From: Candidatus Parcubacteria bacterium
GTDB lineage: Bacteria > Patescibacteriota > Minisyncoccia > Sungbacterales > SURF-37
Assembly: GCA_003599755.1 (NCBI GenBank)
Contig: QZJO01000009.1
Location: 150,362 to 214,361 of the forward strand
Reading direction: 5' to 3'
Length of the DNA: 64,000 bases
Shown here: positions 1 through 48,425 of the stretch, one piece after another
How the letters are laid out: each line of letters opens with the position of its first letter
How positions within the stretch are numbered: the first letter of the stretch is position 1
Notes under the pieces: generated by a model
What the model saw: the letters and a program-made list of their open reading frames with translations, nothing else
The model's database searches: none
Told to the model about the DNA's origin: nothing
Position numbers and translations under genes: made by a program

Positions 1-309
1 GTCATGCCCTTCCCGAATTTTCTCCACCAGCGCCGGGATTCGCTCCGGCAGCGAATTCCCGTCGGGGCTGAAGGTAATGATGGCGTCTCCCGTAATATGC
101 GGCAGCGCCTCGAGATATCCTTGGCGGAGTCCGCGCTTTTTTTGACGGACGACCACGAGGCCGAGGGACTCGGCGTACTCCACCGTGCCGTCTGTCGATC
201 CCCCGTCCACGACCACAATCTGGTCCACCCACTCGCGCCGAATCTGCGGCATCGTACGGCGCATGCCCTCGATTTCATTGAGCGTCGGAATGAGCAAGCT
301 GACATTCAT
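1..309 (-). CDS. Glycosyltransferase family 2, Dpm1/GtrB-like polyprenyl-phosphate sugar synthase (N-terminal ~103 aa in window; gene continues past position 1)
   Basis: Reverse-complement translation from ATG at 307-309: MNVSLLIPTLNEIEGMRR...VVVDGGSTDGTVEYAESLG...ITFSPDGNS, i.e. GT2 N-terminus with DxD-type motif; start overlaps stop of downstream epimerase (ATGA). Confidence 0.7.
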   Translation of the reverse strand, partial: MNVSLLIPTLNEIEGMRRTMPQIRREWVDQIVVVDGGSTDGTVEYAESLGLVVVRQKKRGLRQGYLEALPHITGDAIITFSPDGNSLPERIPALVEKIREGHD

Positions 310-1241
310 ATGCGGTGCGTCGCCTTAAACCATGCGACAGTTTCGCTCAAGCCGTCGGTGAGCTTTACCGTGGGGCGGTAGCCGAGGATGCGGCGCGCCC
401 GGCGAATATCAACCCAGAACCGATCTACTTCGGCTGGTTTCGGCGGCTTGCGGATCGGTCGATTGTTCGGGCGGCCAAGAATCGCTGCGAGCGCGGCGTA
501 TAAATCCGCCATATCAGTCTCTTTGCCGGAGCCGATATTGAAGACGGGATCGCCCCGATACCCGCGGATCTCCATGGCCGCGAGATTGGCCCGGACAATA
601 TCGGTGACGTGGACATAATCGCGGGTCTTTGCGCCGTATATCGCCGCGCGCCGGCCGTTTGAAATTTTCAGTATGTAATCTTCAATAACCCGAGATACCT
701 GCCGCGGCCCGTAGACCGTGCTGTAGCGGAGAATGACAGAATCGAGGCCGTGATGCTCGCGGTAAAATTTCAGATACTGCTCACCCGCGAATTTTGAGAT
801 ATTGTACGGGGCAAGCGGCTGGAATGGCTCGGTTTCGGGCGTAGGAAATCGCCCGGCGTTCCCGTAAATATACCCCGACGAAGCGTAGAGCACTCGTTTC
901 GCCGTGTGCGCGCGAGAGAACTCGAGGAGATTGAGGAGGCCGGCGAGTCCTGCGACGTCGCGCAGCGGCTCGACTATGGAAACCGGAGGGTTGGATACCG
1001 CGGCGAACGCAAAAACATACTCGGGCTTCTCCCGGCGGAATACATTGCCGAGCGCCCGCGAAGCCGTCGGCATCCGGTAGAACCGGACGTTGGGGTGCAC
1101 GTTTTCGCGCCGTCCGCTGGACAGATCGTCCACCACGGCCACGCGCGCCCCTTGAGCGACGAGCGCATCAACCGTATGCGAGCCAATAAACCCCGCACCG
1201 CCGGCGACGAGCACCCTTCGATGGTTCCAAAATTTCTTCAT
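306..1241 (-). CDS. NAD-dependent nucleotide-sugar epimerase/dehydratase (extended SDR)
   Basis: N-terminal Rossmann motif VLVAGGAGFIGSH, YxxxK-type core; 311 aa. Confidence 0.8.
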   Translation of the reverse strand: MKKFWNHRRVLVAGGAGFIGSHTVDALVAQGARVAVVDDLSSGRRENVHPNVRFYRMPTASRALGNVFRREKPEYVFAFAAVSNPPVSIVEPLRDVAGLAGLLNLLEFSRAHTAKRVLYASSGYIYGNAGRFPTPETEPFQPLAPYNISKFAGEQYLKFYREHHGLDSVILRYSTVYGPRQVSRVIEDYILKISNGRRAAIYGAKTRDYVHVTDIVRANLAAMEIRGYRGDPVFNIGSGKETDMADLYAALAAILGRPNNRPIRKPPKPAEVDRFWVDIRRARRILGYRPTVKLTDGLSETVAWFKATHRI

Positions 1242-1312
1242 AGGGACAGATGCGGTTTGGCGGGGCTAATGAACGCTATTTGAATTCAAAAATATAGGGA
1301 AGTCAATGCCGC

Positions 1313-2671
1313 TCATTTCGCCGCACGAAGGATTGCAGCGGCAAGACGTTCGGCCGCGTGGCCGTCGAACGGGCCGCACTGTTCCGCGACAAGACGTGAG
1401 CGCGCCTCGCGATCTTGGGCAGGATCCGCCAGGTATGCCTGGATCATCCCCAATAATTCGTCAGGACTTTTGGGCATGCGGATCGCGCCGGTGGCGAGGG
1501 CATTTTTGTAGTGTGCCATCTGGTAAAACTGCGTCGGCGACTTCAACAGGCGCTCGTTCACGTGCATTTCAAAATCGATGTTAATGATCGGCTTATCGAA
1601 GCAGGCCGCGTCCACGCTCATGCTCGATGCATAGCAGATGAGCATCTCCATATGCGCGAGCGTATCGGCAAGGTGCGTGAGCTCATCTTCTCCCATGTCC
1701 CAATCCACGCCGCGCGCGGCCGAGAAGCGCGTCCCAGGACGATCGTAGCGGAGCCACGGCCGTCGTTCCATCTCCTGTTTCGCGAACGTGTCGTTGGGCT
1801 GGAAGCGCACAAAGAGTTTTACCTCCGGCCCGAACGAACCGTTCGTCTCCCAGCGATGCAAAAGATCGATGATGTCCCAGTCCGACGTGGAAAACGCCTC
1901 GCCCATCGGGGCGTACAGCACGAATCGCTCGTTCGGCGCAAGACCGATTTTTTTTAAAAAATCGGAGCGAAACGTCGGCCGATACCCTACATAGCGGTCA
2001 TACTGCGGAATGCCCGCAATCGCAATCCGTTCGGCCGGCATATCCGCGTATTGGATCGCCTCGTCGCGCACGATCGCATTGAACACCAGAAGCGTATCGG
2101 GAAGTAGGCGCAGCGCGGAGCGCGCCGTGAGTTTGTCCCACGAGTTGATGAAGCCGATAACCGGCACCCTGCGGCGCTTCGCCTCGCGCACGAGCGCGTT
2201 TTCAGCATCATCGAACAGATGCGCCGCCAATACCGCCCGCGGCTGATAGCGCTCGAACAACGGCGCAAAGGTATGGTCGCGCGCGAACCGCTCGTCGATG
2301 CGGCGCAGCCACGCCCGCACGCGCGGTCGCGCGAGCCAGCCGTTGATGCGTTTGCCGATGCGGTATCCCACCGCGCGCTCGCGACGCTCCCAGATCATGC
2401 GGCGGCGCAGATCCGTCGTCGCGGTCTTGAGCGTGAAAAATTTGAGCCGTGCCAAAAGCCGCTCCCAAAACCCGCGCGGCTGCCAGCGCACCACTTCGTA
2501 ACGCAGCCGCGGATCCGAAAATTCCTTTGCGTAATGTTCCTTGCGACTTTCGCTCGTAACGAGCAGCACCACTTCGGTATCGTCCCCGGCGAGCAGATAC
2601 CGTACGACGCCGGTACGCAAAAGGTTCTTTGCCTCCACGCCTTGAAAAAGCGTTACGAAGACCGTTTTCAT
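1313..2671 (-). CDS. TagF/TagB-family (Glyphos_transf) CDP-alcohol phosphotransferase-like polymerising enzyme, paralog 1
   Basis: Motifs GIPQYDRY (cf. TagF GYPRxD), VLYAPMGEAF (cf. vLYAPTwR), ICYASSMSVDAACFDKPIINIDF (cf. DYSSvmfDfaltgKPiI). Confidence 0.55.
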   Translation of the reverse strand: MKTVFVTLFQGVEAKNLLRTGVVRYLLAGDDTEVVLLVTSESRKEHYAKEFSDPRLRYEVVRWQPRGFWERLLARLKFFTLKTATTDLRRRMIWERRERAVGYRIGKRINGWLARPRVRAWLRRIDERFARDHTFAPLFERYQPRAVLAAHLFDDAENALVREAKRRRVPVIGFINSWDKLTARSALRLLPDTLLVFNAIVRDEAIQYADMPAERIAIAGIPQYDRYVGYRPTFRSDFLKKIGLAPNERFVLYAPMGEAFSTSDWDIIDLLHRWETNGSFGPEVKLFVRFQPNDTFAKQEMERRPWLRYDRPGTRFSAARGVDWDMGEDELTHLADTLAHMEMLICYASSMSVDAACFDKPIINIDFEMHVNERLLKSPTQFYQMAHYKNALATGAIRMPKSPDELLGMIQAYLADPAQDREARSRLVAEQCGPFDGHAAERLAAAILRAAK

Positions 2672-4032
2672 GACGCAGTGATGATCCGTTCTATGAATGC
2701 GACCGTGCGCTCGGCACTCTTGCCGTCGCGGAACGGCACGTATTTGGCGAGGCAGCGGCGGCGGCCGTCATGGTCGCGCGCCGGATCGGCCAGATAGGCA
2801 TTCACCTCGGCGGCGAGCGATTCGATATCATCCGCACGCCGCACGCCGCCTGCCTCGACCATGCCGCGATTATATTCATACTCATACACGACGCGTCGGT
2901 GCGACGGGAACCCGATCGTAATAACCGGGCGGTCGAAAATCGCGGCCTCGATGATAATGGTCGAGACGAAATTGATCACCACGTCGGCATACCGAAGCGT
3001 TGCCGAAAGATTCATAAGATCATCTTCTCCCATTTCGATTTTTTGTCCCCCGGCAGAATCGGGCCTGGTTTGCCGGCCGGCCCGTTCGAAATGCAGCCAC
3101 GGCGCATGCAGGCCTGCATACGTATCGAGCGCGTCGTTCGGATGGATACGGATAAGGATATTCGGCTCGCCGGCAATGTGACCAGCGCGGCGCATCTTTA
3201 CAAGCCCTTCCACGAGTTCGCGCCGCGGCGGATAGTTCGACGGCGTGGGCCCGGCAAGCACGATCAGGGACTTTTGTGGATCCAATCCTTTAGACCGTAA
3301 GAATGTTTCGCGAGACGGGAATGCCGGATCTTTCGGATCGGCGAAGTAGTGGTCGAACCGCAGGCAACCGGCAATCGCAAGCTCTTCGTCGCGGTAGCCG
3401 TGCAGCGATTTGGCATCCTCGATCATGACGCTATTCCATACGGCCAAGAAATCCGTTTTGCGCATCATCTTGCCGTTTGAGGTGAGATTGTCGTGATTGA
3501 TATTGATGGCAGCGGTGCGGATTCCCAGCGCTTTGGCCGCGACAATCACCTCGGCCTCGAACGGCGTAAAACCGGGAGTCGCCGTGATAACCAGCACGGG
3601 ATGCTCGCGTTGGAACAGCGGCTTGAGCGTATCGGGTACGCCCGCGAAGCGCATCTCCCAACGGGTCAAGCGATCGGTCGTAAAGAGCCAGCGCGGAAAC
3701 AGAATCCGCGCGCGCATCAATAGTTTCCGGAATGACGCATGCGGCCGCTCGTAGAAATGGCGCATGTACGACAAATGGTCGAACGCCCGGGTGAGCGGCA
3801 CGCGCAAATATTTATCGAAAACATTCCAGAGGCGAGGCCGCGCGAGCGGCACGCGCGCGTAGCTGATGGTGGGGCCGCGCGGATAGCGGTCGCGCTCGGC
3901 CACAGCCGCGTCGATAGCCGGCGTGAGCACGACGACGCGGAAGCGTTCGGCCAAAAGCTCAATGCAGCCGGTGCGCAAGACATCGGAATAGTGGCTGAAT
4001 TGCGCGAGTGCGACAAAAACCGTCGGCATCAT
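2668..4032 (-). CDS. TagF/TagB-family (Glyphos_transf)-like protein, paralog 2
   Basis: Same architecture as paralog 1 (AGCLRFDHY, IVLAGPTPS, TIIIEAAIFDRPVITIGF); ATGA overlap with both neighbours. Confidence 0.5.
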   Translation of the reverse strand: MMPTVFVALAQFSHYSDVLRTGCIELLAERFRVVVLTPAIDAAVAERDRYPRGPTISYARVPLARPRLWNVFDKYLRVPLTRAFDHLSYMRHFYERPHASFRKLLMRARILFPRWLFTTDRLTRWEMRFAGVPDTLKPLFQREHPVLVITATPGFTPFEAEVIVAAKALGIRTAAININHDNLTSNGKMMRKTDFLAVWNSVMIEDAKSLHGYRDEELAIAGCLRFDHYFADPKDPAFPSRETFLRSKGLDPQKSLIVLAGPTPSNYPPRRELVEGLVKMRRAGHIAGEPNILIRIHPNDALDTYAGLHAPWLHFERAGRQTRPDSAGGQKIEMGEDDLMNLSATLRYADVVINFVSTIIIEAAIFDRPVITIGFPSHRRVVYEYEYNRGMVEAGGVRRADDIESLAAEVNAYLADPARDHDGRRRCLAKYVPFRDGKSAERTVAFIERIITAS

Positions 4033-4760
4033 GCAGCCAGATTCGGGAAGCCGCCTTTTTTGAGAATCAACTCGGCAACGTCAAAATCAAAATCGGTATC
4101 AAGATCCACCTGCGGATGGTCCACAAAATACGGCAATACTTTGTCACCGATCACTGATTTTTTCTCGCGGAGCGTCTGGTAGCGGACCACACCGATATTG
4201 GCGTTCGTCGCGTAGACCTTCGGCAAGAGTTGGCGCGGCATATTGAAATGTTCGGGAATGGCGCTTTGCGAAAGGAACGGCACCATGAACGCCCCTTCCA
4301 GCTTCCACATTTTGTGCGGCGTCTTGTCTGGCTCGTGCACCGAGCGAACCGAATCCGCTTCGGGAAACCGCGATAGAAGATCGAGCGCTTCTTCGATTTC
4401 CTTCGGAGCGCGGATAGGTCCGGTCGGCCGCAGATGCACGACGATATCCGGCTTCCATTTCTCATGTGCCTCGAGCCAATCAAGGCAATGCTCGAATACC
4501 GGATAATCCGGCGTCAGGTCCTCGGCCAATTCCGCCGGCCGCAAAAACGGGACTTCGGCGCCATAGCGTTTGGCAACGTCGGCAATCTCCTCCGAATCGG
4601 TCGATACGATTACGCGGTCGATCGCCGGCGAGGCCTTGGCGGCGATGATGCTGTAGGCAATCAGCGGCTTGCCCGCCAAAAGCCGCAGATTCTTTTTCGG
4701 CACGCCCTTGGAACCGCCGCGGGCCGGGATCAGAGCGAGAACGGATGCATTCCTATACAT
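4029..4760 (-). CDS. Acylneuraminate cytidylyltransferase family (CMP-nonulosonate synthetase, NeuA/PseF/LegF-like), copy 1
   Basis: N-terminal LIPARGGSKGVPKKNL motif of CTP_transf_3 family; 243 aa. Confidence 0.8.
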   Translation of the reverse strand: MYRNASVLALIPARGGSKGVPKKNLRLLAGKPLIAYSIIAAKASPAIDRVIVSTDSEEIADVAKRYGAEVPFLRPAELAEDLTPDYPVFEHCLDWLEAHEKWKPDIVVHLRPTGPIRAPKEIEEALDLLSRFPEADSVRSVHEPDKTPHKMWKLEGAFMVPFLSQSAIPEHFNMPRQLLPKVYATNANIGVVRYQTLREKKSVIGDKVLPYFVDHPQVDLDTDFDFDVAELILKKGGFPNLAA

Positions 4761-4916
4761 ACCCGGTAGTAGAATTTCAAATATAATGACGTTTTCCCTT
4801 GCTATCCCTCTTGAATCTTTTCGAGATTACCTGGCATGCAAAATGGCCAGTCGGCCCAATTGAAATTTCACTACCGGGCATACATAAAACCTATACTGTT
4901 TACTACCAGAATGGAA

Positions 4917-4945
4917 CGGGGCGGGTTGCAGAGAACCCGCCCCGG
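4917..4945 (-). terminator. Candidate intrinsic terminator after GT-B gene (11-bp stem CGGGGCGGGTT/AACCCGCCCCG)
   Basis: Perfect inverted repeat 3 nt downstream of the stop at 4948, followed on the minus strand by UUCCAUUCU; lies in an AT-richer 187-nt gap that also has a TATATT element upstream of the NeuA-like start. Confidence 0.45.
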
Positions 4946-4947
4946 TG

Positions 4948-6150
4948 CTAACTACCTCCCCTTCTCTTCTCGACGGGAATCATCCCGACCGATGCATGAC
5001 CGGCACTATTGGCGATGATGGCGGCGGCGTACCGGTTTCCGTCCAACATCCCGAAGCGCCGCCGCAACTCTTCATTGCGGGCCCGAATGCCCGGCCGCAA
5101 TGCATCGCTGTCGGAGATCAGCTCTTGAAGGGACTCGCCGCGCCATACGATGCCAAGACCCAAGACCTCGATGCAGCGGTTGTTGTAGAGGATCTCCGGA
5201 TCATCAGCCGGGTCGAAGTCGGGCACCACGAGCGGCGTACCCGAGAGCTGCGACAACCACACCGACCCCCAGCCGGCCCGCGCGAATTGGAACAGGATCG
5301 CCGGATTCGGCACCACATGGGGCAGCATACGCTCGCCCCCGGGCACCGCGTCGGGATCGTTGGTATACAGATGCATGCCGAGCGCCTTGGCTTCCTGAAA
5401 GAGGCGCTCGAGCCCGGGAATCCCGGTTACGGTCACGAAGATACCGACATCGAGCGGGTCGTCGTTAGGCGCCGGCGGCGTGATCGTCGGCGGGATCGCG
5501 CGCTCCGTTCGATACCGGCGCATGCGGCCCTCCAGATACGAGAACGTGCCCGGCTCGGCGAGGCCAACGAACTTGGCCTTTTCTTCCAGAACGCGGAGCA
5601 TCGGGATCGCTTCGCGCACGAGATTGCGGTCGACCTTGACCATCTCGGATGATTCCCCGAGCACGTGCTCGAGAATCTCGGAGATATGAGCGAACGTGAC
5701 GTCGTAGCGCGGCGAGATGCCGAAGTCGACCCGCGGCGAACGAGCAAGCTGCAAGACGATGTCGCTTCCCGGCACGGCGTTCGATTCGCCGGACAGGTTC
5801 TGGACCGCGAGCTGGCCAGCAAGATACATCTGCGCATCCCGGCTCGCATCGGCGCCTTCGGTCACGAAGCTCTTGAGCGCGGTCTCGTAGTCGCTCTCAC
5901 CGTAGAACACCCGCTTCAGGATGGCGCCCAGCGTCGCATCCAGGAGGATCTCGCCCGGATGCTTTATGTCGTGCTGCGCGAATTCTTCGAGCATGACCCG
6001 CCTCTGGTCTTCGCCGTACACCCAGGGGACGATGATTCCGAGGCGCTCTTGGCGCCGGCCTTCCCGCGCGGCATTGAGCGCCAGCGCGAGTTCCACGGTT
6101 CGGAGGTACGGCCCCCGCCCGTAGGCGAAATTTACAACTGCGTAGCGCAT
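4948..6150 (-). CDS. GT-B fold glycosyltransferase/UDP-sugar hydrolase (MurG/PseG-like C-terminal signature)
   Basis: C-terminal ARAGWGSVWLSQLSGTPLVVPDF...DDPEILYNNRCIEVLGLGIV resembles the GT1/GT28 nucleotide-sugar binding motif; sits between NeuA-like and NeuB-like genes. Confidence 0.4.
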   Translation of the reverse strand: MRYAVVNFAYGRGPYLRTVELALALNAAREGRRQERLGIIVPWVYGEDQRRVMLEEFAQHDIKHPGEILLDATLGAILKRVFYGESDYETALKSFVTEGADASRDAQMYLAGQLAVQNLSGESNAVPGSDIVLQLARSPRVDFGISPRYDVTFAHISEILEHVLGESSEMVKVDRNLVREAIPMLRVLEEKAKFVGLAEPGTFSYLEGRMRRYRTERAIPPTITPPAPNDDPLDVGIFVTVTGIPGLERLFQEAKALGMHLYTNDPDAVPGGERMLPHVVPNPAILFQFARAGWGSVWLSQLSGTPLVVPDFDPADDPEILYNNRCIEVLGLGIVWRGESLQELISDSDALRPGIRARNEELRRRFGMLDGNRYAAAIIANSAGHASVGMIPVEKRRGGS

Positions 6151-6228
6151 GGCTGCTCCTTTCGACGCGTCAGTGAACTACCCGGATCAGCAATATCACA
6201 AATATACCGCCGACTCAAGCGCATCGAA

Positions 6229-7200
6229 TTATGCCGCGAGCGAGCGCTCGTCCCAATTTTGAACCCATTCTCCGCCTATATTACTGGCGAAGCGGCCGCG
6301 GTAATAGTCGCGGTTCAGCATCTCGGTATGCGTCATGTCGCGCGTCGCCGAACCGAGCATCACGCGCCAATCCGGAATTTCGCGTTCCAGCAGCGTCATG
6401 CGTTCCTCGCGCGACCGCTTGGCAAAATCCGCGAGCTCGCGCAATTGATCGGGATTGATGGATACCGGGCCATCCTTGGTAGCATCGGCCGGAAGAATCG
6501 TGAAATGCCGCTCGATATAATCGGCGCCCAGGGCCAACGCCGCCTTTGCCGCTTTGATCCCGTCGCGGGCGACGAGCGTATGGTCGGACCAGCCGACTTC
6601 GGGCGCGAATTGGCGGAGCCAATCCATGCGCGCCAAATTCGACATGGCAAGCGTATTCGGATAGCTCGTCACGCAATGGAGCATCGCATAGGGCTTGCCG
6701 GACGCCTTCAAGATTTCCGATGCCTTGGCGATCTCGTCATCGAGCGTCGCGCCGGTCGAGACGACCAAGCGGTCAAACGATCCGGTAAGATCCCGCAGCA
6801 TGGGAAAGCTCGCGCAGTCGTAGCTCGCGACCTTCACCAATTTCTCCTTCCACGGCAACGACGCCGCGAATGGGATGCGCTTCTTCGCGAACACGGTCAT
6901 CATCGGCGCCACGCCCGCCCGATGCGCTTCTTCGATGAAAAAATGATAGTCGTCTTCGGCCAAATCCAGCGACGCAAGCCGCGCCTTCTCCGGCTCGAAC
7001 GGACGCTGGATGGCTTTACGCACGCCGTTGGATTCCACGACGCCGGTTTCAAACCGCTCGCGGGGATGCAGATCTTCGGAAAAAATAATCTGGCCCTTCA
7101 CAATATCCGCGCCGGCCTCGGCCGCGCGCTGAATCATATCGCGAAGGACCCGGCGGTCCCCTTTGTGGTTCTGGCAAACCTCGGCGATTAGTTTGGCCAT
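6229..7200 (-). CDS. N-acetylneuraminate synthase family (NeuB/PseI/LegI-like), copy 1; no obvious C-terminal SAF domain
   Basis: N-terminal IAEVCQNHKGD (NeuB IAEIGxNHNGD motif), TIM-barrel-like length 323 aa. Confidence 0.75.
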   Translation of the reverse strand: MAKLIAEVCQNHKGDRRVLRDMIQRAAEAGADIVKGQIIFSEDLHPRERFETGVVESNGVRKAIQRPFEPEKARLASLDLAEDDYHFFIEEAHRAGVAPMMTVFAKKRIPFAASLPWKEKLVKVASYDCASFPMLRDLTGSFDRLVVSTGATLDDEIAKASEILKASGKPYAMLHCVTSYPNTLAMSNLARMDWLRQFAPEVGWSDHTLVARDGIKAAKAALALGADYIERHFTILPADATKDGPVSINPDQLRELADFAKRSREERMTLLEREIPDWRVMLGSATRDMTHTEMLNRDYYRGRFASNIGGEWVQNWDERSLAA

Positions 7201-7270
7201 GGAGGCTGAGAGTAGATACGCTTATATGACCCCAACGTAGCACACTTCGTTTCCGCGGAAATCATGCTAA

Positions 7271-7300
7271 AGAGAGAAGCCGCAGCGCACTGGCTGCGGC
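7271..7300 (-). terminator. Candidate intrinsic terminator downstream of small ORF 7323-7643
   Basis: Hairpin GCCGCAGC-gcactg-GCTGCGGC (7279-7300) followed on the minus strand by CUUCUCUCUUU. Confidence 0.4.
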
Positions 7301-7322
7301 TCCGCCGTGATGCAGAAAACGC

Positions 7323-7643
7323 CTACTCGTAGGCCCGCTTTGCTCCCTCGGACAGGCGTTGGAAGAACTCGTCGCCCTCGGTCGGGTTCGGGCCCAGATC
7401 CGGGCGCCTGCTCGGGTTCGAGGCATGTTTCGTTCCGTCTCGCCGAAACGCCTCGATGCCTCCCACGTTCTGAAGGGCGTCGAGCTGCTCCTCGGGAAGA
7501 TCGCCGCTCACGATGCCATAGCGCTCGAGGCGTTGCTGATTGATAGCCGTCATGCCGAGCGCCGCGAGGCGGTTGAGAACTTCCTGCTTTGTCGCCGGAT
7601 TAGCCGCGACATTTTTCTTGAGCACGATATGCACATTCATCCC
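7323..7643 (-). CDS. Hypothetical small protein (~106 aa from MNVHIVLKKN...)
   Basis: ORF in frame with a longer 146-aa reading; start chosen at internal ATG 7641-7643; no recognisable motif. Confidence 0.35.
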   Translation of the reverse strand, partial: GMNVHIVLKKNVAANPATKQEVLNRLAALGMTAINQQRLERYGIVSGDLPEEQLDALQNVGGIEAFRRDGTKHASNPSRRPDLGPNPTEGDEFFQRLSEGAKRAYE

Positions 7644-7713
7644 CAACCTCCAGCGGTTCGTATTTGAGCGGTACCACGATCCCGACTCGATTGACAATCG
7701 GATTGACCGGCAA

Positions 7714-8484
7714 TCACGCGACGGGCTTCCGACCGTCGACGGCCCAGCTGTTGCCATTAACATGAACTACCGAAACATGTTCCAAACCCGCCTGGCGCAA
7801 AAGTTCTTCGGCTTCGGATCGGCGATAATAGCGCGCGATCGCCGGCAGGAGCTGATCAAACGCGATGCTGTGCAAATGCGAAAAGCGGAAATTCCGAATT
7901 TGACGCAGGTACGGATGCTTCACCGGCCAGACGCGGAGGAATACGTACAGCGGCGCCGAGCAACCGTACGTCAGGACGTGCAATAGCGGCGGCGGCAGAT
8001 GGCTCGTGATGGCTCGACGCACCGGCGAGACGAACCGCTCGATCCATTCATTCCCCTCATATCCATAGACCCAGATATGCACCCGGCCGCCGGGCCTGAC
8101 CGCATCGGCGAGTTTCCGCACCGCCGCGGCCGGATCGGCAAGATGATGGATCACGCCGATCGAGAACGCGAGATCGAACTCGTTCGTCCATGGCGCGTCG
8201 TAAACGCTCAGGGTCTGGACGCGGACATTCGGATACGAGGCCAGGTTTGCTTGGGCCGCGGCAACGGAACGCCCGTCCGCATCGAACGCTACAACTTCGG
8301 CCGCACCCCACCGAAGCGCCCATACGCTGTTGCGGCCCATGCCGCAGCCGGCGTCCAATACGCGCTTGCCCGCGATATCGGCCGGCCCGAGCGGCGCCAT
8401 CCAACGCCGAAACTGCTCCTCGTATTCCGGGAGTACCGCTGCATAGGTCTGCCACTCGAAGGCGAAACGGTCGGCGGAAGCCAT
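7714..8484 (-). CDS. Class I SAM-dependent methyltransferase
   Basis: Motif I VLDAGCGMGRNS and downstream acidic-loop / PGGRVHIW pattern. Confidence 0.75.
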   Translation of the reverse strand: MASADRFAFEWQTYAAVLPEYEEQFRRWMAPLGPADIAGKRVLDAGCGMGRNSVWALRWGAAEVVAFDADGRSVAAAQANLASYPNVRVQTLSVYDAPWTNEFDLAFSIGVIHHLADPAAAVRKLADAVRPGGRVHIWVYGYEGNEWIERFVSPVRRAITSHLPPPLLHVLTYGCSAPLYVFLRVWPVKHPYLRQIRNFRFSHLHSIAFDQLLPAIARYYRRSEAEELLRQAGLEHVSVVHVNGNSWAVDGRKPVA

Positions 8485-8487
8485 GGA

Positions 8488-40411: not shown

Positions 40412-40412
40412 A

Positions 40413-42131
40413 TCAGAGGCGTACGCGATACAGTTTGAATTCGCCAATTTGGGCCGCCGGTTCCAAAAACGGAAATTGTTCGAACGGCAGCTCAGGATCG
40501 CGGACAACATCCCATACGATATAATCGACGCGGTACCGCCTCAGCGCCTCGCGGAATCCCATCGCGCGCAATTCAGCCGCGCCGAGAAGCGTTGTCACAA
40601 TGTATTCATCCGCCGCCGGCAGCGGACGCGGCTCGAATCCCAGTAACCGACGCAGCCGATTGCCTTGCGCGATATGCGCCCGCAGGTCAATGCCGTAAAC
40701 GCCGACCAGCGCCCGCTCGTGCGCCGCCACGAACGCCGCATCAAACGGATCCGCAAAAAAATTCTGGATGATGAACCGGTCGGCAAGCTCCGCATCGGAC
40801 ACAAAAAAGAGCCGCGCCAGCTGATCGAAGTATACGTTCGCATGTGTCGCTATGGGAATCAAACCGGAAAGATCCCCGGACGCGTATACGACCGCATCCC
40901 GGGGAACCTCCCGATCGATCCAGCGGAACAATGGTTCATAGCGCACCCAGGCCGCGCGCCGAGCTTTCGGCGGTTCGAATAATTCGGGAATATCGCGCAC
41001 GGCCGGCGCAGCCAACACGATCGCGGCACCCAACGCTCCGGCGGCCACCCACCGGCGCTGCATCGGCAAGCGCGCCATGATCCGTCCCGCGAGAAATGCA
41101 GCTGTCGCGACGAACCATAGTCCGGCGGGCAATAGATAATGGCTTGAGAACTCTAGATTTTTACCCGTGATGAGATGCTGATTAACACTAATCACTATTG
41201 CCGCGATACCGCTGATAAGAACCAACGCCTCAGGCCTTGTCGTCGACCGCTTCCGCAACCATATCCCTGCGAGTACGGCGAACAAAAGCACCGCAGGAAT
41301 AACGATGGCGATACCCGAGGGGAATCGCGTCTCGATCATGCCGATGCGGTGCAGCGTTTCTGCGTATTCAGGCAATCGGATTGCCTGAATGAAAAACCAA
41401 AGATACGGCAGCGCTACCAGCAGTGCACCCCCGAACACCATCGAAAACTGCCGCGCTTGCTCGCGCTTATTCGAGAGCCAAAATACGGCCGCCAAGAGCG
41501 CCGTGCAGATAAACGCGAACACCGCATAATACGTATAGAGATACGGAAGCAAGCCAATGCTTGCCGCGGCAATAGCGAGGGCGCCGCGCCGCGCCGGCAG
41601 CGCTTGCGCTATAGCCAGAAGCGCTATGATCGCCGCGAGCAAGACCGGTATATGTAATTGCGGACTTACGCTACGGCCGAATTCGTGAGGGAACATTCCA
41701 ACAAAAAAAATCAGCGCCGCAGCAATAGCGATCGCGCGGCTCCATGCCAGACGCAGAAACAAAAGATATGCGGCAAGCACTGCAAGCGCGGGCAACACGA
41801 AATCAAGGATAATACTTTGCGCGATGACGTACGGGCCGATCACGAACAGTGGAAGCGCGATCAGGAATTCGCCCAGGAATATGGGCGCGGGCGGTTTCGA
41901 TTTATGTTCGGCCAGATACGGATTCCCGATGGTGACATGGCCGTCTACAACTTCTCGGATGCGCGCGAAATATAATGCTTCGTCATCGGCTCGCATATGC
42001 GCCGGACTATTCAACGGAATATCGTACCGAAGCCAATGCCAAAGCGGCGTAGTGACGAGCATGGCGCTCACGAAAAATGCCAAACCAAATGCCGCCCCAT
42101 GGCGTTGCAATGTCGATATCAATCCGGTCAT
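40413..42131 (-). CDS. ArnT/PMT-like GT-C family membrane glycosyltransferase (putative)
   Basis: Polytopic N-terminal domain with first-loop RADDEALYFARIREV (DE motif) plus ~180-aa C-terminal soluble domain. Confidence 0.5.
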   Translation of the reverse strand: MTGLISTLQRHGAAFGLAFFVSAMLVTTPLWHWLRYDIPLNSPAHMRADDEALYFARIREVVDGHVTIGNPYLAEHKSKPPAPIFLGEFLIALPLFVIGPYVIAQSIILDFVLPALAVLAAYLLFLRLAWSRAIAIAAALIFFVGMFPHEFGRSVSPQLHIPVLLAAIIALLAIAQALPARRGALAIAAASIGLLPYLYTYYAVFAFICTALLAAVFWLSNKREQARQFSMVFGGALLVALPYLWFFIQAIRLPEYAETLHRIGMIETRFPSGIAIVIPAVLLFAVLAGIWLRKRSTTRPEALVLISGIAAIVISVNQHLITGKNLEFSSHYLLPAGLWFVATAAFLAGRIMARLPMQRRWVAAGALGAAIVLAAPAVRDIPELFEPPKARRAAWVRYEPLFRWIDREVPRDAVVYASGDLSGLIPIATHANVYFDQLARLFFVSDAELADRFIIQNFFADPFDAAFVAAHERALVGVYGIDLRAHIAQGNRLRRLLGFEPRPLPAADEYIVTTLLGAAELRAMGFREALRRYRVDYIVWDVVRDPELPFEQFPFLEPAAQIGEFKLYRVRL

Positions 42132-42179: not shown

Positions 42180-43340
42180 CTACACCCGCGCCAGGCCCCC
42201 CAGAATCCGCTCGGCGCGCGCAGCCCAGGTATACCGCTGGACCGCCTGTTGGGCGCGTGCGGCGCGATGCGCCGCTTCCTGGGGATGTTCAATACCGGCA
42301 CGAATCGCATCAGCGAGTGCCGCCGCATTATCCGGCTCTGCAAGCGCGACAGTGGTCTTGTCCACGATTTCGCGGATCGAGGGCAAATCTGATGCCACGA
42401 TCGGCCGGCCCGATGCCATGTATTCGAATAATTTCATGGGCGAGGTATGCAACCGCGACTCTTCGTCCTTGGCCGTGTTGGGCAGTACTAAAACGTCCGC
42501 GGCTCGCAGCCATATCGGCATCTCACTCCATGGCCGCTGGCCGAAAAACCGCACCCGATCAAACGGGTCGCCTCCGGCCCATTGCCGCACCGCCCCGATC
42601 GCGGCTTCATCCCCGCCCACAATGCATATCAGATAATCGGCGGGCAGCAGGCGCGATGCCCGGAGCAAGGTCTCGACGCCCTTCCAGCGGAAAAGTTGCC
42701 CCGTATAGCAGACGATCTTTTTGTCCTGCGGCAGACCGAGTTCCGCGCGCGCCTCGTCCGCGGCGAGCGTGCTTTGGAATTGTCCAACATCCGTGCCATT
42801 CGGCCAGGATACGATACGCTCCGCAGAAATGGAAAAATCTCTTTGCAACATTGCCACCTTCGCGCGGGTCTGAGTCACGATGCAACGCGCGCGCCGCAGC
42901 ACGCGCGCGTACCAAAAACTTTTGACCGGATAGGAGTGGATATCGTAGGCGATATACGGCGCGACAAAACTCGCGAAAAACAACGGAATATGATCATGCG
43001 AGAATACGACGGCATCGCGCAGCCGGTGGACGCGCAGCGCGAGCCAAACCGCGGCAACCAAAGAAAATGAAAACAGCTGAACCGGAAACCAAATACGCTG
43101 GCCGAATCCTAGCCACAACAAATCGAAACTGGGCACGCGGACAATGCGGAAATTTTTTGGCACGCCGTAAAACGCATATGGATCATCTTTGATCGGATTC
43201 CAACGCCACGGCACCACGACCGTAGTCGGGATGCCGGCCGCGGCGAACGCGGAGGCGAGCTTTACGGTGGCCAAGCCGTGCGCTTTTTCGGTCGGCAGGC
43301 GGGCGTTGGTCACATATACGATTTCGGACGGGAATTTCAT
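42180..43340 (-). CDS. Glycosyltransferase family 4 (GT-B)
   Basis: Start at MKFPSEIVYV (ATGA overlap with the upstream gene); C-terminal KLFEYMASGRPIV motif. Confidence 0.75.
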   Translation of the reverse strand: MKFPSEIVYVTNARLPTEKAHGLATVKLASAFAAAGIPTTVVVPWRWNPIKDDPYAFYGVPKNFRIVRVPSFDLLWLGFGQRIWFPVQLFSFSLVAAVWLALRVHRLRDAVVFSHDHIPLFFASFVAPYIAYDIHSYPVKSFWYARVLRRARCIVTQTRAKVAMLQRDFSISAERIVSWPNGTDVGQFQSTLAADEARAELGLPQDKKIVCYTGQLFRWKGVETLLRASRLLPADYLICIVGGDEAAIGAVRQWAGGDPFDRVRFFGQRPWSEMPIWLRAADVLVLPNTAKDEESRLHTSPMKLFEYMASGRPIVASDLPSIREIVDKTTVALAEPDNAAALADAIRAGIEHPQEAAHRAARAQQAVQRYTWAARAERILGGLARV

Positions 43341-44428
43341 ACGAACGATTCGCGGTATCGGTTCCGGTATTCCGCCTCGGTCCCCGGCTCCATGGCGAGC
43401 ACGACGCGCTGGGCCTCGGCAGCCATGGTCTTGGTCCACTCGCCTTCCCGGCGAGCCGCAATCAATGCGCCACCCAGAGCCGCGGCACTCCCCGGGAGAA
43501 CCACGCGGCCGGTTTTCTGGTCTTGAATGATCTCGCCTGCGATCCCGACGTCGGTCATGATTACCGGCAACCCGGCAGCCGCGGCCTCGATCACGCCGCG
43601 GTTATATCCTTCATGATTCGACGTAAGCAAAAAGCAGTCCGTTCCTTTATAGTACGGTAAAAGATCATCCTGCCATCCAAGGAATTCGACGCGTTCAACG
43701 CCGAGCAGCCGTTCGCGTTCCGGCCCATCGCCGACCACAACCATGCCGCTCCGAGGAAATTCCTTGCAGAGCACCGTGAAGGCCTCGAGTGCGAGAGGAA
43801 TATTTTTCTCGCGCACGAGGCGCGCGGCAAAGAGCACGATCCAATCGTACTGCGGGAATTTAGCATGAAGATCGAATGCCGGCGCGGCAGCGGCAATGGC
43901 CGAGCGATCCACGAAAATCGGCAGCACGCGGATGCGGCCCTCCGAAATGCCCCGCGCGACCAGCGAACGCTTGATACGCTCGGATACGACGCGAAATCGC
44001 GCGGCGCGGCGGATAACATACCGTGCAATCCAGAAGCGAAGCCGATCTTTGATCGATTGCCGCCGGAAGGCGGGCGCGAAGAAATCCGCGTGCAGCTGCA
44101 CGTGCAGCGGTACGCGCGTGCGCCGCACAGTAAGCCATCCGGCAAGACCGGATTCGGCTGGATCTTGGGCGCTCACGCAATCGATAGCCGTCTTTTTCAG
44201 TAACGCGCGCGCGATCCGCGCGGCATCAAACGGCCGGAACGCCGGCTGGCGGGAATTGGTCGGAAAAATTCGGGCATTAGCCGCGATCGCGGTCTCTGAA
44301 AATCCCGGCGGCGTCATGACGACGATATCGAGCGTATCGAACAGCGACGCATAGCCGGCGATGCGCTGGCGCGCGGCCGAGTCAGGGCGGAACAATTCGC
44401 GGTCCGTGCCGATAACTAAAAGCTTCAT
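43337..44428 (-). CDS. Glycosyltransferase family 4 (GT-B)
   Basis: HEGYNRGVIEAAAAGLPVI E-x7-E motif. Confidence 0.8.
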   Translation of the reverse strand: MKLLVIGTDRELFRPDSAARQRIAGYASLFDTLDIVVMTPPGFSETAIAANARIFPTNSRQPAFRPFDAARIARALLKKTAIDCVSAQDPAESGLAGWLTVRRTRVPLHVQLHADFFAPAFRRQSIKDRLRFWIARYVIRRAARFRVVSERIKRSLVARGISEGRIRVLPIFVDRSAIAAAAPAFDLHAKFPQYDWIVLFAARLVREKNIPLALEAFTVLCKEFPRSGMVVVGDGPERERLLGVERVEFLGWQDDLLPYYKGTDCFLLTSNHEGYNRGVIEAAAAGLPVIMTDVGIAGEIIQDQKTGRVVLPGSAAALGGALIAARREGEWTKTMAAEAQRVVLAMEPGTEAEYRNRYRESFV

Positions 44429-46864: not shown

Positions 46865-46877
46865 GAGTAGTACTCGC

Positions 46878-48425
46878 TCAGCCGAATTTCCGCTTCAAGG
46901 CGATCACGCCGATCGCCAGAAGGGCGCTTGCGCCAGCACTGATCCCGAAAAATAACCACGTGCGCGATTGGCTTGGCAATGCGGCGGATAGCGCCGCGGT
47001 CTCGCCTGATGCCGGGACCGACGGCGGCTCAGATTCCCGGGCCAGTATCACCGGCGGTTCCACAGGCGGAGGCGCGGACGTCCGAAGAGCTGCCGCCGGA
47101 CGCGGCATCGGCGCCGGTGCGGCAGCAACGTTCACTGCAACCGCCGGTTTAGCCGGTGCGACAAGGCCGGGCGTGGCAACGCGCTCCACGACAAATGCAT
47201 CGCCATTGCGCACCCAGCTGCCGCTGCCTGGAGAACCGACCAGTGCCGCCGCATCCAGAATCATGCCGCGCGCATCGGCGAGCGTGATCGCGGGCGCCGG
47301 CTTGAGCCACGTGGCGCTGTTCGGAAACGCGATCACGCCCCCTGCCGCAATCAATGTATTGGCCGGAATCGCAAAATTCGTTCCCGCATCATCAGTCAAG
47401 CGAATGCCGGCAAGATCGATGCGCGCGTCGCCGGCGTTGAAAATTTCGACGAACCCATCGTTGCCGGGCTTCACTTCGCTGATGATGAGTTTGGGCGGAT
47501 ATACGATAATCATCCGCCAGTCCGCGCCTGCAAGTTCGCCCGATGATACAGAAAGGTGCGCGTGATACGTTCCCGGGAAATAATAAATATGCGTCAGGGC
47601 TTTGCCTTCTTTGACCCAGCCGTCGCCGAAATTCCAGAGGAATCGGGCGTTCGGGATGAGCTCCTTGTTCAGGCCGTACGCAAGTCCGCGAAATTCAACC
47701 ACCGCGCCGGCAATCACCGTTGTATCGTCCCCCGCGTCGGCGCCGAGTCCCTGCGGCGGCGCGACGGCGATATCCCCGCCCCCTGCGGTCGATTGGTCGG
47801 TATCCGCGCCGCCGGACGACGTAGGCGGCGGATTCGAACCCGGATCGGCCATGCCGGGCGAAGTCATAATGCGCCAAGCGCTTGCCGACCCACGCACGCC
47901 ATCGGCAGCCAATCCGATCGAATCGCCTTCGGCGAGCGAACCAGTATCCACGAACGTTCCCGCGGTCCAGAGGCCGGCTTCGGCCGCGGCCGATTCCCAG
48001 GTCTTTCGCTCGCTCGCGCCGGGCTTTTGGTAGCGGACAAAATCCTCGATCGTATCTGCGGAGCGGCCACCGGGCCGGAACAATGCCACTGAGCCGGACG
48101 AGTTGCCCATGTTTGTCGTCGGCGACGCATGATAATGATTCGCCGCATCGCCGGTTCCGGATGCGCGTAGATGAATCGTCAAAAATGAATGACCCGCAAG
48201 GGATGTCCCTGCGGGAAACGCATAATACCCGATGCCGTCCGGATACAGTTCCCAGCCGCTCAAATCCGCGGGGTTCGATCCGGCATTATAGAGCTCGATC
48301 CTCTCAAGACCCGTGTCCGCGCCGGCCGGATCAAACAGAATCTCATTGATAACCACTGCAGCCCCAGCACCGGCAGGGACGGCTGCGATGATCAAAACCG
48401 CCAATATACCGGGAAAGATACGCAT
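46878..48425 (-). CDS. Secreted/cell-surface protein with two lamin-tail domains, a PKD-like domain, Pro-rich linker and C-terminal TM anchor
   Basis: Signal peptide MRIFPGILAVLIIAAVPAGAGA; LTD motifs VINEILFDPAGADTGLERIELYNAG and IISEVKPGNDGFVEIFNAG; PKD-like WNFGDGW; C-terminal WLFFGISAGASALLAIGVIALKRKFG. Confidence 0.7.
   Translation of the reverse strand: MRIFPGILAVLIIAAVPAGAGAAVVINEILFDPAGADTGLERIELYNAGSNPADLSGWELYPDGIGYYAFPAGTSLAGHSFLTIHLRASGTGDAANHYHASPTTNMGNSSGSVALFRPGGRSADTIEDFVRYQKPGASERKTWESAAAEAGLWTAGTFVDTGSLAEGDSIGLAADGVRGSASAWRIMTSPGMADPGSNPPPTSSGGADTDQSTAGGGDIAVAPPQGLGADAGDDTTVIAGAVVEFRGLAYGLNKELIPNARFLWNFGDGWVKEGKALTHIYYFPGTYHAHLSVSSGELAGADWRMIIVYPPKLIISEVKPGNDGFVEIFNAGDARIDLAGIRLTDDAGTNFAIPANTLIAAGGVIAFPNSATWLKPAPAITLADARGMILDAAALVGSPGSGSWVRNGDAFVVERVATPGLVAPAKPAVAVNVAAAPAPMPRPAAALRTSAPPPVEPPVILARESEPPSVPASGETAALSAALPSQSRTWLFFGISAGASALLAIGVIALKRKFG

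Follow-up and report, generated by a model that had tools for sequence, protein, structure and literature searches.

The window analysed here is the whole 64,000-nucleotide (64-kb) stretch of contig QZJO01000009.1 from Candidatus Parcubacteria bacterium, an uncultured, ultra-small member of the Candidate Phyla Radiation (CPR). We read its gene content, with about an even chance of being right, as a mosaic surface-glycan locus in which oligosaccharides would be assembled in the cytoplasm and glycosyltransferases (GTs) of the GT-C fold would add decorations outside the membrane, both with machinery of known kinds. The window has a G+C content of about 60% throughout. Open reading frames (ORFs) were tiled across it, and all of them were scanned against Pfam and NCBIfam; coordinates and scores are collected in Table 1. 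Positions 1-48689 hold 39 minus-strand glycan genes, in an almost gap-free run, and one plus-strand gene. The locus is cut at position 1, where the first gene is partial, and its full extent therefore lies beyond the window. An earlier sequence-only reading had described a unidirectional locus of about 40 consecutive minus-strand genes; the run of glycan genes to position 48689 and its 39 minus-strand members stand, but the plus-strand gene at 25958-26995 is embedded in it. The content of the locus was partly confirmed in the same sense, most genes being as earlier described, with the corrections given below.

Three family 2 glycosyltransferases (GT2) of the polyprenyl-phosphate-sugar synthase type had been proposed, and all three were recovered, at 1-309, at 12910-13875 and as the N-terminal domain of 35181-37649. 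AglJ, the top NCBIfam match of the partial protein, is annotated as an S-layer glycoprotein N-glycosyltransferase. The 12910-13875 protein aligns with ArnC from end to end (E 5.7e-49; 166.8 bits, under the equivalog cutoff) and with PgfS (E 3e-36), and has two transmembrane (TM) helices at its C-terminus. The N-terminal domain of 35181-37649 matches the structure of the Pyrococcus dolichol-phosphate-mannose (Dol-P-Man) synthase 5mlz (E 4.8e-30). These matches support a polyprenyl-phosphate glycosyltransferase type for both proteins, the exact sugar not being fixed by scores below equivalog level. Judging from its homologs, the 822-amino acid (aa) fusion encoded at 35181-37649 joins the products of what in relatives are two separate, neighbouring genes. 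In one related locus (L001), residues 1-232 correspond to a 235-aa GT2 (62.5% identical) and residues 252-822 to a 577-aa PMT_2 protein (43.6% identical), and the closest relatives of the C-terminal domain (P0167-P0180, of 573-638 aa, plus one of 924 aa) are without a GT2 domain. A GT2 fusion as such is not unusual, because architectures that join GT2 to a membrane or other partner (GT2+PMT_2, GT2+GtrA+PMT_2, GT2+DUF2723, GT2+YfhO, GT2+methyltransferase) are common in the database. A cytoplasmic GT2 ahead of the first TM helix of the GT-C part would place D281-E282 outside the membrane, an arrangement that would make topological sense.

The same reading had named three GT-C proteins with an Asp-Glu (DE) loop, and in all three, the fusion included, the pair follows directly after the first GT-C TM helix. 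Profile searches upheld two of these calls, since 48945-50681 and the fusion C-terminal domain pass the PMT_2 (PF13231) threshold of 26.1 bits with 95 and 28.2 bits, but they gave nothing for 40413-42131, whose assignment is supported by its fold. The two that pass are half of the four GT-C-fold proteins of the window; the other two, 40413-42131 (572 aa) and 9057-11018 (653 aa, about 12 TM helices), have no Pfam match even at E<=1. The AlphaFold model of the 572-aa protein has a predicted local distance difference test score (pLDDT) of 85.5, and its top 25 Protein Data Bank (PDB) fold matches are all GT-C enzymes, including DPY19, AftA, STT3, ArnT and PglB. An alignment of 14 members of its family shows D50 to be invariant and E51 to be nearly so, just past the first TM helix, and one distant homolog (P0014) has a weak PF13231 match. 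The 653-aa protein is absent from the earlier reading. Like the 572-aa protein, the 400-aa protein at 4948-6150 and one of the TagF-like paralogs described below, it retrieved nothing in a PDB sequence search, and it has no NCBIfam match. Its family was collected by an exhaustive profile search that yielded 553 representatives, and an alignment of 64 sequences gave a model with a pLDDT of 93.7; loci were scanned for this family with alignment A1, the wide alignment A3 being too diverse. DUF2298 (PF10060) is matched by 17 of the 64 members (best E 1.5e-10) and not by the window protein itself, and the family has in common the motifs GNFP, a near-invariant Y-H-Y, E313 and QGG. Its predicted fold suggests catalytic competence, with E28, D124/D125 and E313 as candidates for the catalytic acid.

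The 572-aa and 653-aa families are homologous at the profile level (hhalign probability 97%, E 7e-11, 323 columns), and distant copies of the two often stand side by side elsewhere (L039, L041, L042). The profile of the 572-aa family gave no significant match to a PMT_2 protein sequence (probability 1.6%), although the DE motifs were aligned. An identity of the new GT-C proteins as STT3/PglB oligosaccharyltransferases was rejected for lack of the WWDYG motif: all four GT-C proteins lack WWD and WxDYG motifs, and the window scans returned no STT3 Pfam match. The likeness in fold to STT3, PglB and AglB is at the general GT-C level only.

We compared the 572-aa family across 33 species-representative loci, 24 of which come from Patescibacteria (Azambacteria, Sungiibacteriota, Komeilibacteria, Magasanikbacteria, Parcubacteria and Minisyncoccia among them). 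Homologs of the methyltransferase at 39473-40510 and of the family 4 glycosyltransferase (GT4) at 42180-43439 are each present in 22 loci, and in 22 loci a GT2 homologous to the fusion N-terminal domain, similar to dolichol-phosphate-mannose synthase (DPMS), lies within 3 kb of the 572-aa-family gene. The usual order is GT2, methyltransferase and GT-C with overlapping stops and starts, and the three genes are contiguous in 14 loci. GT2 is fused to a 572-aa-family GT-C in two loci (L011:9296-11683 and L035:9164-11551) and to the methyltransferase in two others (L020:8278-9870 and L023:6965-8599). Because they are fused in these related CPR genomes, the three activities are probably functionally linked. 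The window shares with L001/L005, L006 and L008 a rearranged form of this unit, in which the GT-C gene is followed by the methyltransferase and/or nucleotidyltransferase, a GT4, GT2 and PMT_2 (fused or separate) and Wzx. Genes for CDP-alcohol phosphatidyltransferases lie near the 572-aa-family GT-C in L014 and L025, two in each, which hints at phospho-alcohol or lipid head-group chemistry in some versions of the system.

A second cassette, composed of the ArnC-like GT2, an AsnB-like amidotransferase, the 653-aa GT-C and methyltransferase, occupies 7714-13875. It recurs in L042, L045 and L046 and partly in L004 and L038, in loci that span 35-61% G+C. Within L045 it belongs to a contiguous Arn-like set (3240-11925) of an ArnC-like GT2, a short-chain dehydrogenase/reductase (SDR), a DegT aminotransferase, a formyltransferase, an AsnB-like enzyme, a 653-aa-family GT-C and a methyltransferase, and this gene set suggests a lipid-linked formamido or amino sugar as the donor for the 653-aa family. 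In another locus (L003) the family stands beside NeuB, NeuC and CMP-synthetase genes. The AsnB-like ORF probably has its true start near 12905, as its NCBIfam matches begin at residue 57. Synteny with L001/L005, L006 and L008 extends over the right half of the window and takes in the genes for surface proteins described below. By these comparisons the window combines, as a mosaic, modules that other CPR genomes carry apart from one another.

Sugar precursors of an unusual kind are indicated by two NeuB-family synthases, by two CTP_transf_3 proteins of the type that makes CMP-KDO (3-deoxy-D-manno-octulosonate) or CMP-nonulosonic acids, and by NeuC, whose score exceeds its cutoff. An SDR similar to UDP-sulfoquinovose synthase is encoded between CMP-synthetase and NeuC, a hint that a surface glycan of a CPR bacterium may contain a sulfonated sugar. 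A gene for a 2-hydroxyacid dehydrogenase-like protein is wedged between those for NeuB and CMP-synthetase; as a speculation, its product might supply a hydroxyacyl substituent (e.g. glyceroyl) for a nonulosonic acid. Four proteins of the locus had been called TagF-like. Four are present and they are paralogs (28-38% mutual identity), but the label is better changed to nonulosonic-acid-transferase-like, given their matches to NF046086 (BFO_1060) and their NeuB and CMP-synthetase neighbours. BFO_1060 is the ortholog of Tanf_01245, a genetically proven transferase of a pseudaminic acid (Pse) derivative in the Tannerella S-layer O-glycan that has a TagB-like domain (PMC5420450). We take the new label as the better-supported lead and not as proof of membership. 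The HP and D/E-D/E-G motifs of the sialyltransferase type (PMC5420450) are not clearly recognisable in alignment A5 of the paralogs. A teichoic-acid (TagF) reading was rejected, since the Glyphos_transf matches are marginal or absent (33.0, 24.5 and 21.9 bits against a cutoff of 22.1, and no match for the fourth paralog) and the window has no TagD-type glycerol-3-phosphate cytidylyltransferase and no CDP-glycerol pathway.

A Wzx-like flippase had also been proposed, and Pfam places it at 33736-35139, directly downstream of the GT2::GT-C fusion; it follows the PMT_2 gene in the same way in L001/L005, L006 and L008. It is the sole flippase-type gene of the window, where neither an ABC exporter nor a second flippase was found. 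The claim that the locus has no initiating transferase of the WbaP or WecA type and no Wzy or Wzz holds within the 64 kb. None of the tiling ORFs gave a Pfam match to Bac_transf, to the MraY/WecA type (Glycos_transf_4), to Wzy_C or to GtrA, and neither a Wzy polymerase or Wzy_C ligase nor a chain-length regulator (Wzz) was found. Five stop-to-stop ORFs in the 64 kb have at least three hydrophobic segments, and all are assigned, as the four GT-C proteins and Wzx. Searching the window by tblastn with the CPR Bac_transf, Wzy_C-TPR and GtrA proteins of related loci was likewise negative (best Bac_transf E 0.18). The 33 related loci contain 49 further membrane ORFs, among them 3 Bac_transf, 4 Wzy_C (with or without TPR), 4 GtrA (in four loci), 5 PMT_2 and 5 Wzx-type proteins. 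In L013 the GT-C homolog has a Bac_transf gene (213.8 bits) at a distance of 0.7 kb, and in L004 two Wzy_C-TPR genes and GtrA are directly upstream of the homolog. The lack of genes for a priming transferase, for Wzy and for GtrA is therefore real within the window but weak as evidence, because the locus is cut at position 1 and relatives carry these genes beside the same GT-C; for the latter reason it is also plausible that a priming enzyme is encoded elsewhere in the genome.

The locus was said to end with a lamin-tail surface protein followed by peptidoglycan (PG)-anchored Ser/Thr-rich proteins, and this is what we find: a protein with lamin-tail (LTD) and PKD domains and, beyond it, two PG_binding_1 proteins with Thr/Pro linkers. 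The start of the LTD/PKD protein is most likely M89 of ORF 46878-48689 (position 48425), where a segment resembling a signal anchor begins; the N-terminal 88 residues of the ORF were rejected as coding because of their atypical codon-position G+C. The LTD gene is syntenic in L001, L006 and L008. L006 has a 52% identical homolog of the 48945-50681 GT-C, divergent from its LTD gene, and in L008 a 49% identical homolog of 50675-51931 adjoins the LTD gene. In the window the stop of 48945-50681 overlaps the start of the PG_binding_1 gene 50675-51931. The larger PG_binding_1 protein (53588-57325) contains 14-32% Ser+Thr per 100-residue block, mostly 20-30%, and the edge of L008 carries a homologous fragment; a gene for a TPR protein between the two is also shared with that locus.

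The observed gene content, folds, fusions and synteny suggest the following scheme, in which we propose the donors, what the flippase does, the sequence of events and the acceptors. Precursor enzymes (two NeuB, two CMP-synthetase-like proteins, NeuC, aminotransferase, formyltransferase, deacetylase, dehydrogenase, sulfoquinovose-synthase-like protein and methyltransferases) would provide unusual nucleotide sugars that include two nonulosonic acids. Eleven cytoplasmic GT-B modules would then build an oligosaccharide that contains nonulosonic acid, on a carrier whose priming enzyme would be encoded outside the window; four of these are the BFO_1060-like proteins, presumably using CMP-sugars, and seven are GT4 modules, which Pfam places in six genes and which agree in number with the seven GT4s noted before. 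Decoration outside the membrane would fall to at least two multi-component transmembrane glycosylation modules. In one, the DPMS-like GT2 fused to the PMT_2-type GT-C would make a polyprenyl-phosphate-sugar, the partner methyltransferase would probably modify its sugar or its product, the adjacent Wzx would flip the lipid-linked monosaccharide (probably) and/or the oligosaccharide, and the fused and 572-aa GT-C proteins would transfer the flipped sugar. In the other, a second sugar, in modified form, would be supplied by the ArnC-like GT2 and the 653-aa GT-C together with the AsnB-like amidotransferase and methyltransferases. The 48945-50681 GT-C, translationally coupled to a PG-binding protein with a Pro/Thr linker, would be the best candidate for direct protein O-glycosylation; because of this overlap, O-glycosylation of the PMT-like or streptococcal PgfS/GT-C type fits. 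Precedents are at hand. The Wzx-type protein GacK is proposed to flip an undecaprenyl-phosphate (Und-P)-monosaccharide in the GacI/GacK/GacL system of S. pyogenes (PMC8035078), decoration of wall polysaccharides by GT2/GT-C pairs is well established (PMC8035078, PMC11127046), and so, in streptococci, is O-glycosylation of Ser/Thr-rich extracytoplasmic regions by such a pair (PMC12041528). A more specific proposal is tentative and on the doubtful side: the trio of GT2, methyltransferase and 572-aa GT-C and the cassette of ArnC-like GT2, AsnB, 653-aa GT-C and methyltransferase would be distinct three-component variants, in which the sugar is tailored (methylated or amidated) in the donor pathway and moved by two new, mutually related GT-C families, mostly of CPR genomes, to Pro/Thr-rich surface proteins through which these symbiotic, ultra-small bacteria would attach to their hosts.

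Several observations weigh against the mosaic scheme. The matches of the four paralogs to NF046086 reach 16.6-55 bits against a cutoff of 200 and cover part of the model only. For CMP-synthetase, NeuB, ArnC and sulfoquinovose synthase alike, the matches stay under the NCBIfam equivalog cutoffs, and the sugar identities are for this reason not established. A priming transferase, a ligase, a LytR-CpsA-Psr (LCP) protein, an oligosaccharyltransferase motif and GtrA were all not found in the 64 kb, in the first loop of the 653-aa family no acidic residue is invariant, and we infer the role of the methyltransferase from linkage and fusion.

The sequence-only reading had favoured glycosylation of proteins or cell-wall polymers driven by GT-C enzymes. 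Its core survives, as lipid-linked monosaccharide donors are central to the locus (three GT2, four GT-C, their linkage and fusions), but its inference from the missing priming transferase and Wzy does not, because the locus is truncated, the GT-B enzymes need a cytoplasmic acceptor and relatives have Bac_transf, Wzy_C-TPR and GtrA. Taken strictly, such a system would have no priming transferase and would move single sugars from polyprenyl-phosphate-sugars straight onto surface proteins or wall polymers, as PMT and ArnT do; Wzx would be a lipid-monosaccharide flippase only, and the GT-B enzymes would extend glycans otherwise, e.g. on cytoplasmic proteins. The position of Wzx beside the GT2::GT-C fusion, kept in L001, L006 and L008, agrees with this, as do the lack of priming and polymerase genes in the window, the translational coupling of a PMT_2 GT-C to a Pro/Thr-linker protein and the streptococcal precedent (PMC12041528). 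However, eleven GT-B modules and CMP-sugar pathways call for an externalised acceptor, for which the window offers no ABC exporter or second flippase, Bac_transf and Wzy_C-TPR adjoin the same GT-C family in related loci, and the truncation at position 1 bears here too; we regard this strict form as rather unlikely. The sequence is compatible with either protein or wall polymer as the acceptor.

The presence of Wzx with many GT4 genes would equally suit a classical Wzx-dependent heteropolysaccharide, such as a capsule, exopolysaccharide or secondary wall polymer, with priming enzyme, polymerase and ligase encoded outside the window and the GT2/GT-C proteins adding only side chains to the finished polymer, in the manner of Gtr or rhamnan systems. 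Relatives with Bac_transf and Wzy_C-TPR nearby and the known decoration of wall polysaccharides (PMC8035078, PMC11127046) speak for it. We nevertheless judge it unlikely: the 64 kb hold no Wzy, Wzz or LCP gene, what the related loci conserve best is the GT2/methyltransferase/GT-C trio, as their core and not an accessory, and genes for surface proteins are conserved neighbours of the locus. A lipoglycan route like that to mycobacterial phosphatidylinositol mannosides, lipomannan and lipoarabinomannan (PIM/LM/LAM) would do without a priming transferase, with PimA/PimB-like GT4s acting in the cytoplasm on a membrane glycolipid that is flipped and then extended by GT-C enzymes from polyprenyl-phosphate-sugars. 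Its composition of GT4, DPMS-like GT2 and multiple GT-C proteins resembles that of the window, which also has an inositol-monophosphatase-family gene inside the locus, and CDP-alcohol phosphatidyltransferase genes occur in L014 and L025. No such phosphatidyltransferase was detected in the window by tblastn, however, the GT4 matches are generic with none at an equivalog cutoff, and the nonulosonic-acid content and surface-protein neighbours are left unexplained, which makes this route very unlikely.

Table 1. Genes of the glycan locus and its right-hand border, with strand and the matches behind each assignment
Feature	Coordinates	Strand	Evidence
Partial GT2 (N-terminal 103 aa), AglJ/DPMS-like, candidate polyprenyl-phosphate-sugar synthase	1-309	-	Glycos_transf_2 62.6 bits; best NCBIfam AglJ, E 1.4e-17
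SDR nucleotide-sugar epimerase/dehydratase	306-1241	-	Epimerase 174 bits; GalE, RmlB and LegB-like all under NCBIfam cutoffs
GT-B paralog 1 of 4, BFO_1060-like	1313-2671	-	Glyphos_transf 21.9 bits (cutoff 22.1); BFO_1060_trans E 2.2e-10
GT-B paralog 2 of 4, BFO_1060-like	2668-4032	-	Glyphos_transf 33 bits; BFO_1060_trans E 6.8e-15
CMP-nonulosonic-acid synthetase-like cytidylyltransferase, copy 1	4029-4760	-	CTP_transf_3 84.6 bits; PseF 157 bits (cutoff 205.7)
Soluble protein of 400 aa, no family match	4948-6150	-	No Pfam, NCBIfam or PDB match; codon-position G+C as usual for true minus-strand genes
NeuB-family nonulosonic acid synthase, copy 1, without SAF	6229-7200	-	NeuB 147 bits; NeuB/PseI under NCBIfam equivalog cutoffs
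S-adenosylmethionine (SAM) methyltransferase in GT2/AsnB/653-aa GT-C cassette	7714-8484	-	Pfam; 48-62% identical homologs adjoin 653-aa family in L042, L045, L004
Short SAM methyltransferase	8488-9066	-	Methyltransf_11; 59% identical homolog in L046 cassette
Fourth GT-C-fold membrane protein, 653 aa, ~12 TM, distantly DUF2298-like (C4552_02805)	9057-11018	-	Predicted structure
AsnB-like glutamine amidotransferase	11025-13073	-	Asn_synthase 329 bits; kept beside 653-aa family
ArnC/PgfS/GtrB-like membrane GT2, candidate polyprenyl-phosphate-sugar synthase	12910-13875	-	ArnC and PgfS full-length; two C-terminal TM helices
NeuB-family synthase, copy 2, with SAF domain	13881-14963	-	NeuB 200.7 bits and SAF; under NCBIfam equivalog cutoffs
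D-2-hydroxyacid/phosphoglycerate dehydrogenase (PGDH)-like	14939-15925	-	2-Hacid_dh_C 185 bits; PGDH-like
CMP-nonulosonic-acid synthetase-like cytidylyltransferase, copy 2	15898-16629	-	CTP_transf_3 79.6 bits; PseF 139.8 bits, under cutoff
UDP-sulfoquinovose synthase-like SDR	16696-17883	-	NF041015 479 bits, E 8e-144 (cutoff 575)
NeuC-type hydrolysing UDP-GlcNAc 2-epimerase	18004-19170	-	TIGR03568 302.7 bits (above cutoff 235.9)
Polysaccharide deacetylase family (family of deformylase ArnD)	19245-20285	-	Polysacc_deac_1 60 bits
Formyltransferase	20398-21270	-	Formyl_trans_N 55 bits; ArnA N-domain-like, E 1.4e-13
SAM methyltransferase	21195-22265	-	Methyltransf_11 65.5 bits
GT-B paralog 3 of 4, BFO_1060-like	21952-23466	-	BFO_1060_trans E 8.1e-15; TIGR04396 E 1.2e-4; in Pfam only sub-threshold Glyco_transf_4
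GT-B paralog 4 of 4, BFO_1060-like	23307-24713	-	Glyphos_transf 24.5 bits; 38% identical to 21952-23466
GT4 glycosyltransferase	24782-26053	-	Glycos_transf_1 106.6 bits
Inositol-monophosphatase/HisN/CysQ-family phosphatase	25958-26995	+	Inositol_P 171.4 bits; only plus-strand gene within the run
DegT-family sugar aminotransferase	27174-28379	-	DegT_DnrJ_EryC1 260 bits; RfbH, PseC and ArnB-like under cutoffs
SDR nucleotide-sugar dehydratase/decarboxylase-like	28389-29432	-	Epimerase 142.5 bits; 65% identical to syntenic L001 homolog
Nucleotide-sugar 6-dehydrogenase, closest to UDP-ManNAc dehydrogenase	29433-30728	-	TIGR03026 237 bits (above cutoff 189.8); 68% identical in L001
TylF-type O-methyltransferase	30851-31561	-	TylF 77 bits
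PhyH-like dioxygenase	31686-32570	-	PhyH 23.3 bits, marginal; two homologs at same position in L006
GT4 glycosyltransferase	32580-33719	-	Glycos_transf_1 99.7 bits; 55% identical to L001 homolog
Wzx/MOP-type flippase	33736-35139	-	Polysacc_synt 49.2 bits; ~9 TM
Fusion of DPMS-like GT2 (residues 1-232) and PMT_2-type GT-C (252-822), 822 aa	35181-37649	-	GT2 93.5 bits and PMT_2 28.2 bits
GT4 glycosyltransferase	37659-38768	-	Glycos_transf_1 122 bits; present in 15 of 33 related loci
Sugar-1-phosphate nucleotidylyltransferase	38772-39455	-	NTP_transferase 86 bits
SAM methyltransferase, conserved partner of 572-aa GT-C	39473-40510	-	Methyltransf_23 87 bits; adjoins GT-C in 22 of 33 loci
GT-C-fold glycosyltransferase, 572 aa, ~10 TM, D49-D50-E51 loop (C4552_02935)	40413-42131	-	Predicted structure, family alignment
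GT4 glycosyltransferase	42180-43439	-	Glyco_trans_1_4 80.8 bits; present in 22 of 33 related loci
GT4 glycosyltransferase	43337-44428	-	Glycos_transf_1 91.6 bits
Protein with two tandem GT4 modules, 772 aa	44546-46864	-	Glycos_transf_1 in two stretches, 213 bits total; 45% identical to 761-aa L001 homolog
Surface protein, two lamin-tail domains, PKD, Pro-rich stalk, C-terminal TM anchor	46878-48425	-	LTD 99.6 bits and PKD
PMT_2/ArnT-type GT-C, D34-E35 loop, divergent from main run	48945-50681	+	PMT_2 95 bits, PMT 36 bits
Secreted PG_binding_1 protein, 45-residue Pro/Thr linker (residues 139-185), candidate O-glycosylation substrate	50675-51931	+	PG_binding_1 53 bits
Membrane-anchored TPR protein, syntenic in L008	52057-52857	-	TPR matches; 43.5% identical L008 homolog
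Secreted PG_binding_1 protein of 1245 aa with TP linker	53588-57325	-	PG_binding_1 35.8 bits

Some smaller features of the window complete the map. For the plus-strand phosphatase gene the plus frame is favoured by codon-position G+C as well as by its Pfam match (a HisN-like match of 160 bits is under cutoff), and the overlapping minus-strand ORF 26138-26968 was rejected as a gene, its codon-position G+C being inverted. Candidate roles for the product are those of a sugar-phosphate phosphatase, a 3'-phosphoadenosine 5'-phosphate (PAP) phosphatase or an enzyme of inositol metabolism. The 513-bp gap between the NeuB and methyltransferase genes is filled for the most part by a minus-strand ORF (7323-7637); its codon composition is gene-like, and its small soluble product of about 104 aa matches no family. 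A GtrA gene in this gap (7201-7713) was rejected, the sole ORF there being small, soluble and without a Pfam match. Scans of the window for tRNAs and Rfam families were empty. In two stretches, 57326-58340 (about 1.0 kb) and 59196-59957 (about 0.76 kb), there is neither a convincing ORF nor a tRNA or Rfam family; between them lies a gene for a DeoR helix-turn-helix (HTH) protein (58341-59195), which lies upstream of clpB (59958-62624) and of a gene for an HtrA-like protease (62738-63952).

Among known systems, the Arn pathway to 4-amino-4-deoxy-L-arabinose (L-Ara4N; Ugd, ArnA, ArnB, ArnC, ArnD and ArnT) has parallels in a dehydrogenase, an SDR, a DegT protein, a formyltransferase, a deacetylase-family protein, an ArnC-like GT2 and GT-C proteins of the window, and the set in L045 is contiguous with the 653-aa GT-C. 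It differs in that all matches are below equivalog level, that the window genes are dispersed and could equally serve nonulosonic-acid branches, that an AsnB-like enzyme and methyltransferases are added and that no lipid A acceptor is expected. The organism, a CPR bacterium without an outer membrane, is not expected to make lipopolysaccharide, going by the literature on CPR bacteria. Actinobacterial O-mannosylation by Ppm1/Pmt and the PIM/LM/LAM pathways share with the window a DPMS-like GT2, whose nearest solved structure is a Dol-P-Man synthase, a PMT_2-type GT-C and Pro/Thr-rich secreted proteins that are plausible substrates. In M. tuberculosis Ppm1, too, GT2 is fused to a membrane partner (GT2 + Lnt architectures are in the database), but here the partner is the GT-C itself, there are no MIR domains and no PMT (PF02366) match save a weak one for 48945-50681, and many extra GT-B and nonulosonic-acid genes are present. 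The general protein O-glycosylation locus of Tannerella forsythia (Tanf_01245/BFO_1060) likewise has nonulosonic-acid genes beside TagB/TagF-like GT-B transferases, together with methyltransferases, an enzyme like ManNAc dehydrogenase and an amidotransferase; in contrast, the BFO_1060 matches found here cover the model in part and fall far short of its cutoff, four paralogs stand in place of one and the host is a CPR bacterium. The Tannerella S-layer glycan carries a terminal derivative of Pse or of legionaminic acid (Leg), which serves here as a lead and not as a test.

The broadest comparison is with multi-component transmembrane glycosylation systems (GtrA/B/C, ArnC/E-F/T, CsbB/GtcA/YfhO, GacI-J/GacK/GacL and PgfS/PgfM1). 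Shared with them are a GT2 of the polyprenyl-phosphate-monosaccharide type, a flippase candidate, GT-C proteins with an acidic first external loop (DE in three of the four window proteins) and tight genetic linkage of GT2 and GT-C, with Wzx beside the pair as in the case of GacK. The window differs in having no GtrA, a GT2 fused to its GT-C, a constant SAM methyltransferase as third partner, a constant AsnB-like partner in the second cassette and two GT-C proteins that match no curated family. A limited literature search, which is no proof of absence, turned up neither GT-C systems nor nonulosonic acids described for CPR bacteria, and likewise none of the new features named at the end of this paragraph. 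How the CPR cell envelope is structured and formed is still unclear (PMC5220378), and elaborate cell surfaces are common among the host-dependent CPR bacteria (PMC8080830). The locus and its relatives offer a testable parts list for that envelope: two uncharacterised GT-C families (the 572-aa family being mostly from CPR genomes), their fused or conserved partners, nonulosonic-acid pathways and, among the conserved surface-protein neighbours, candidate glycoproteins. If the enzymes work as proposed, they would widen the range of lipid-linked sugar donors and of GT-C families and point to molecules of CPR-host recognition. The machinery is all of known kinds, namely multi-component transmembrane glycosylation, nonulosonic-acid pathways and assembly by GT4 enzymes; what is new is the lineage, two mutually related GT-C families without a direct curated model, GT2/GT-C cassettes that constantly include a methyltransferase or amidotransferase, and the occurrence of four GT-C and three GT2 proteins in one locus.

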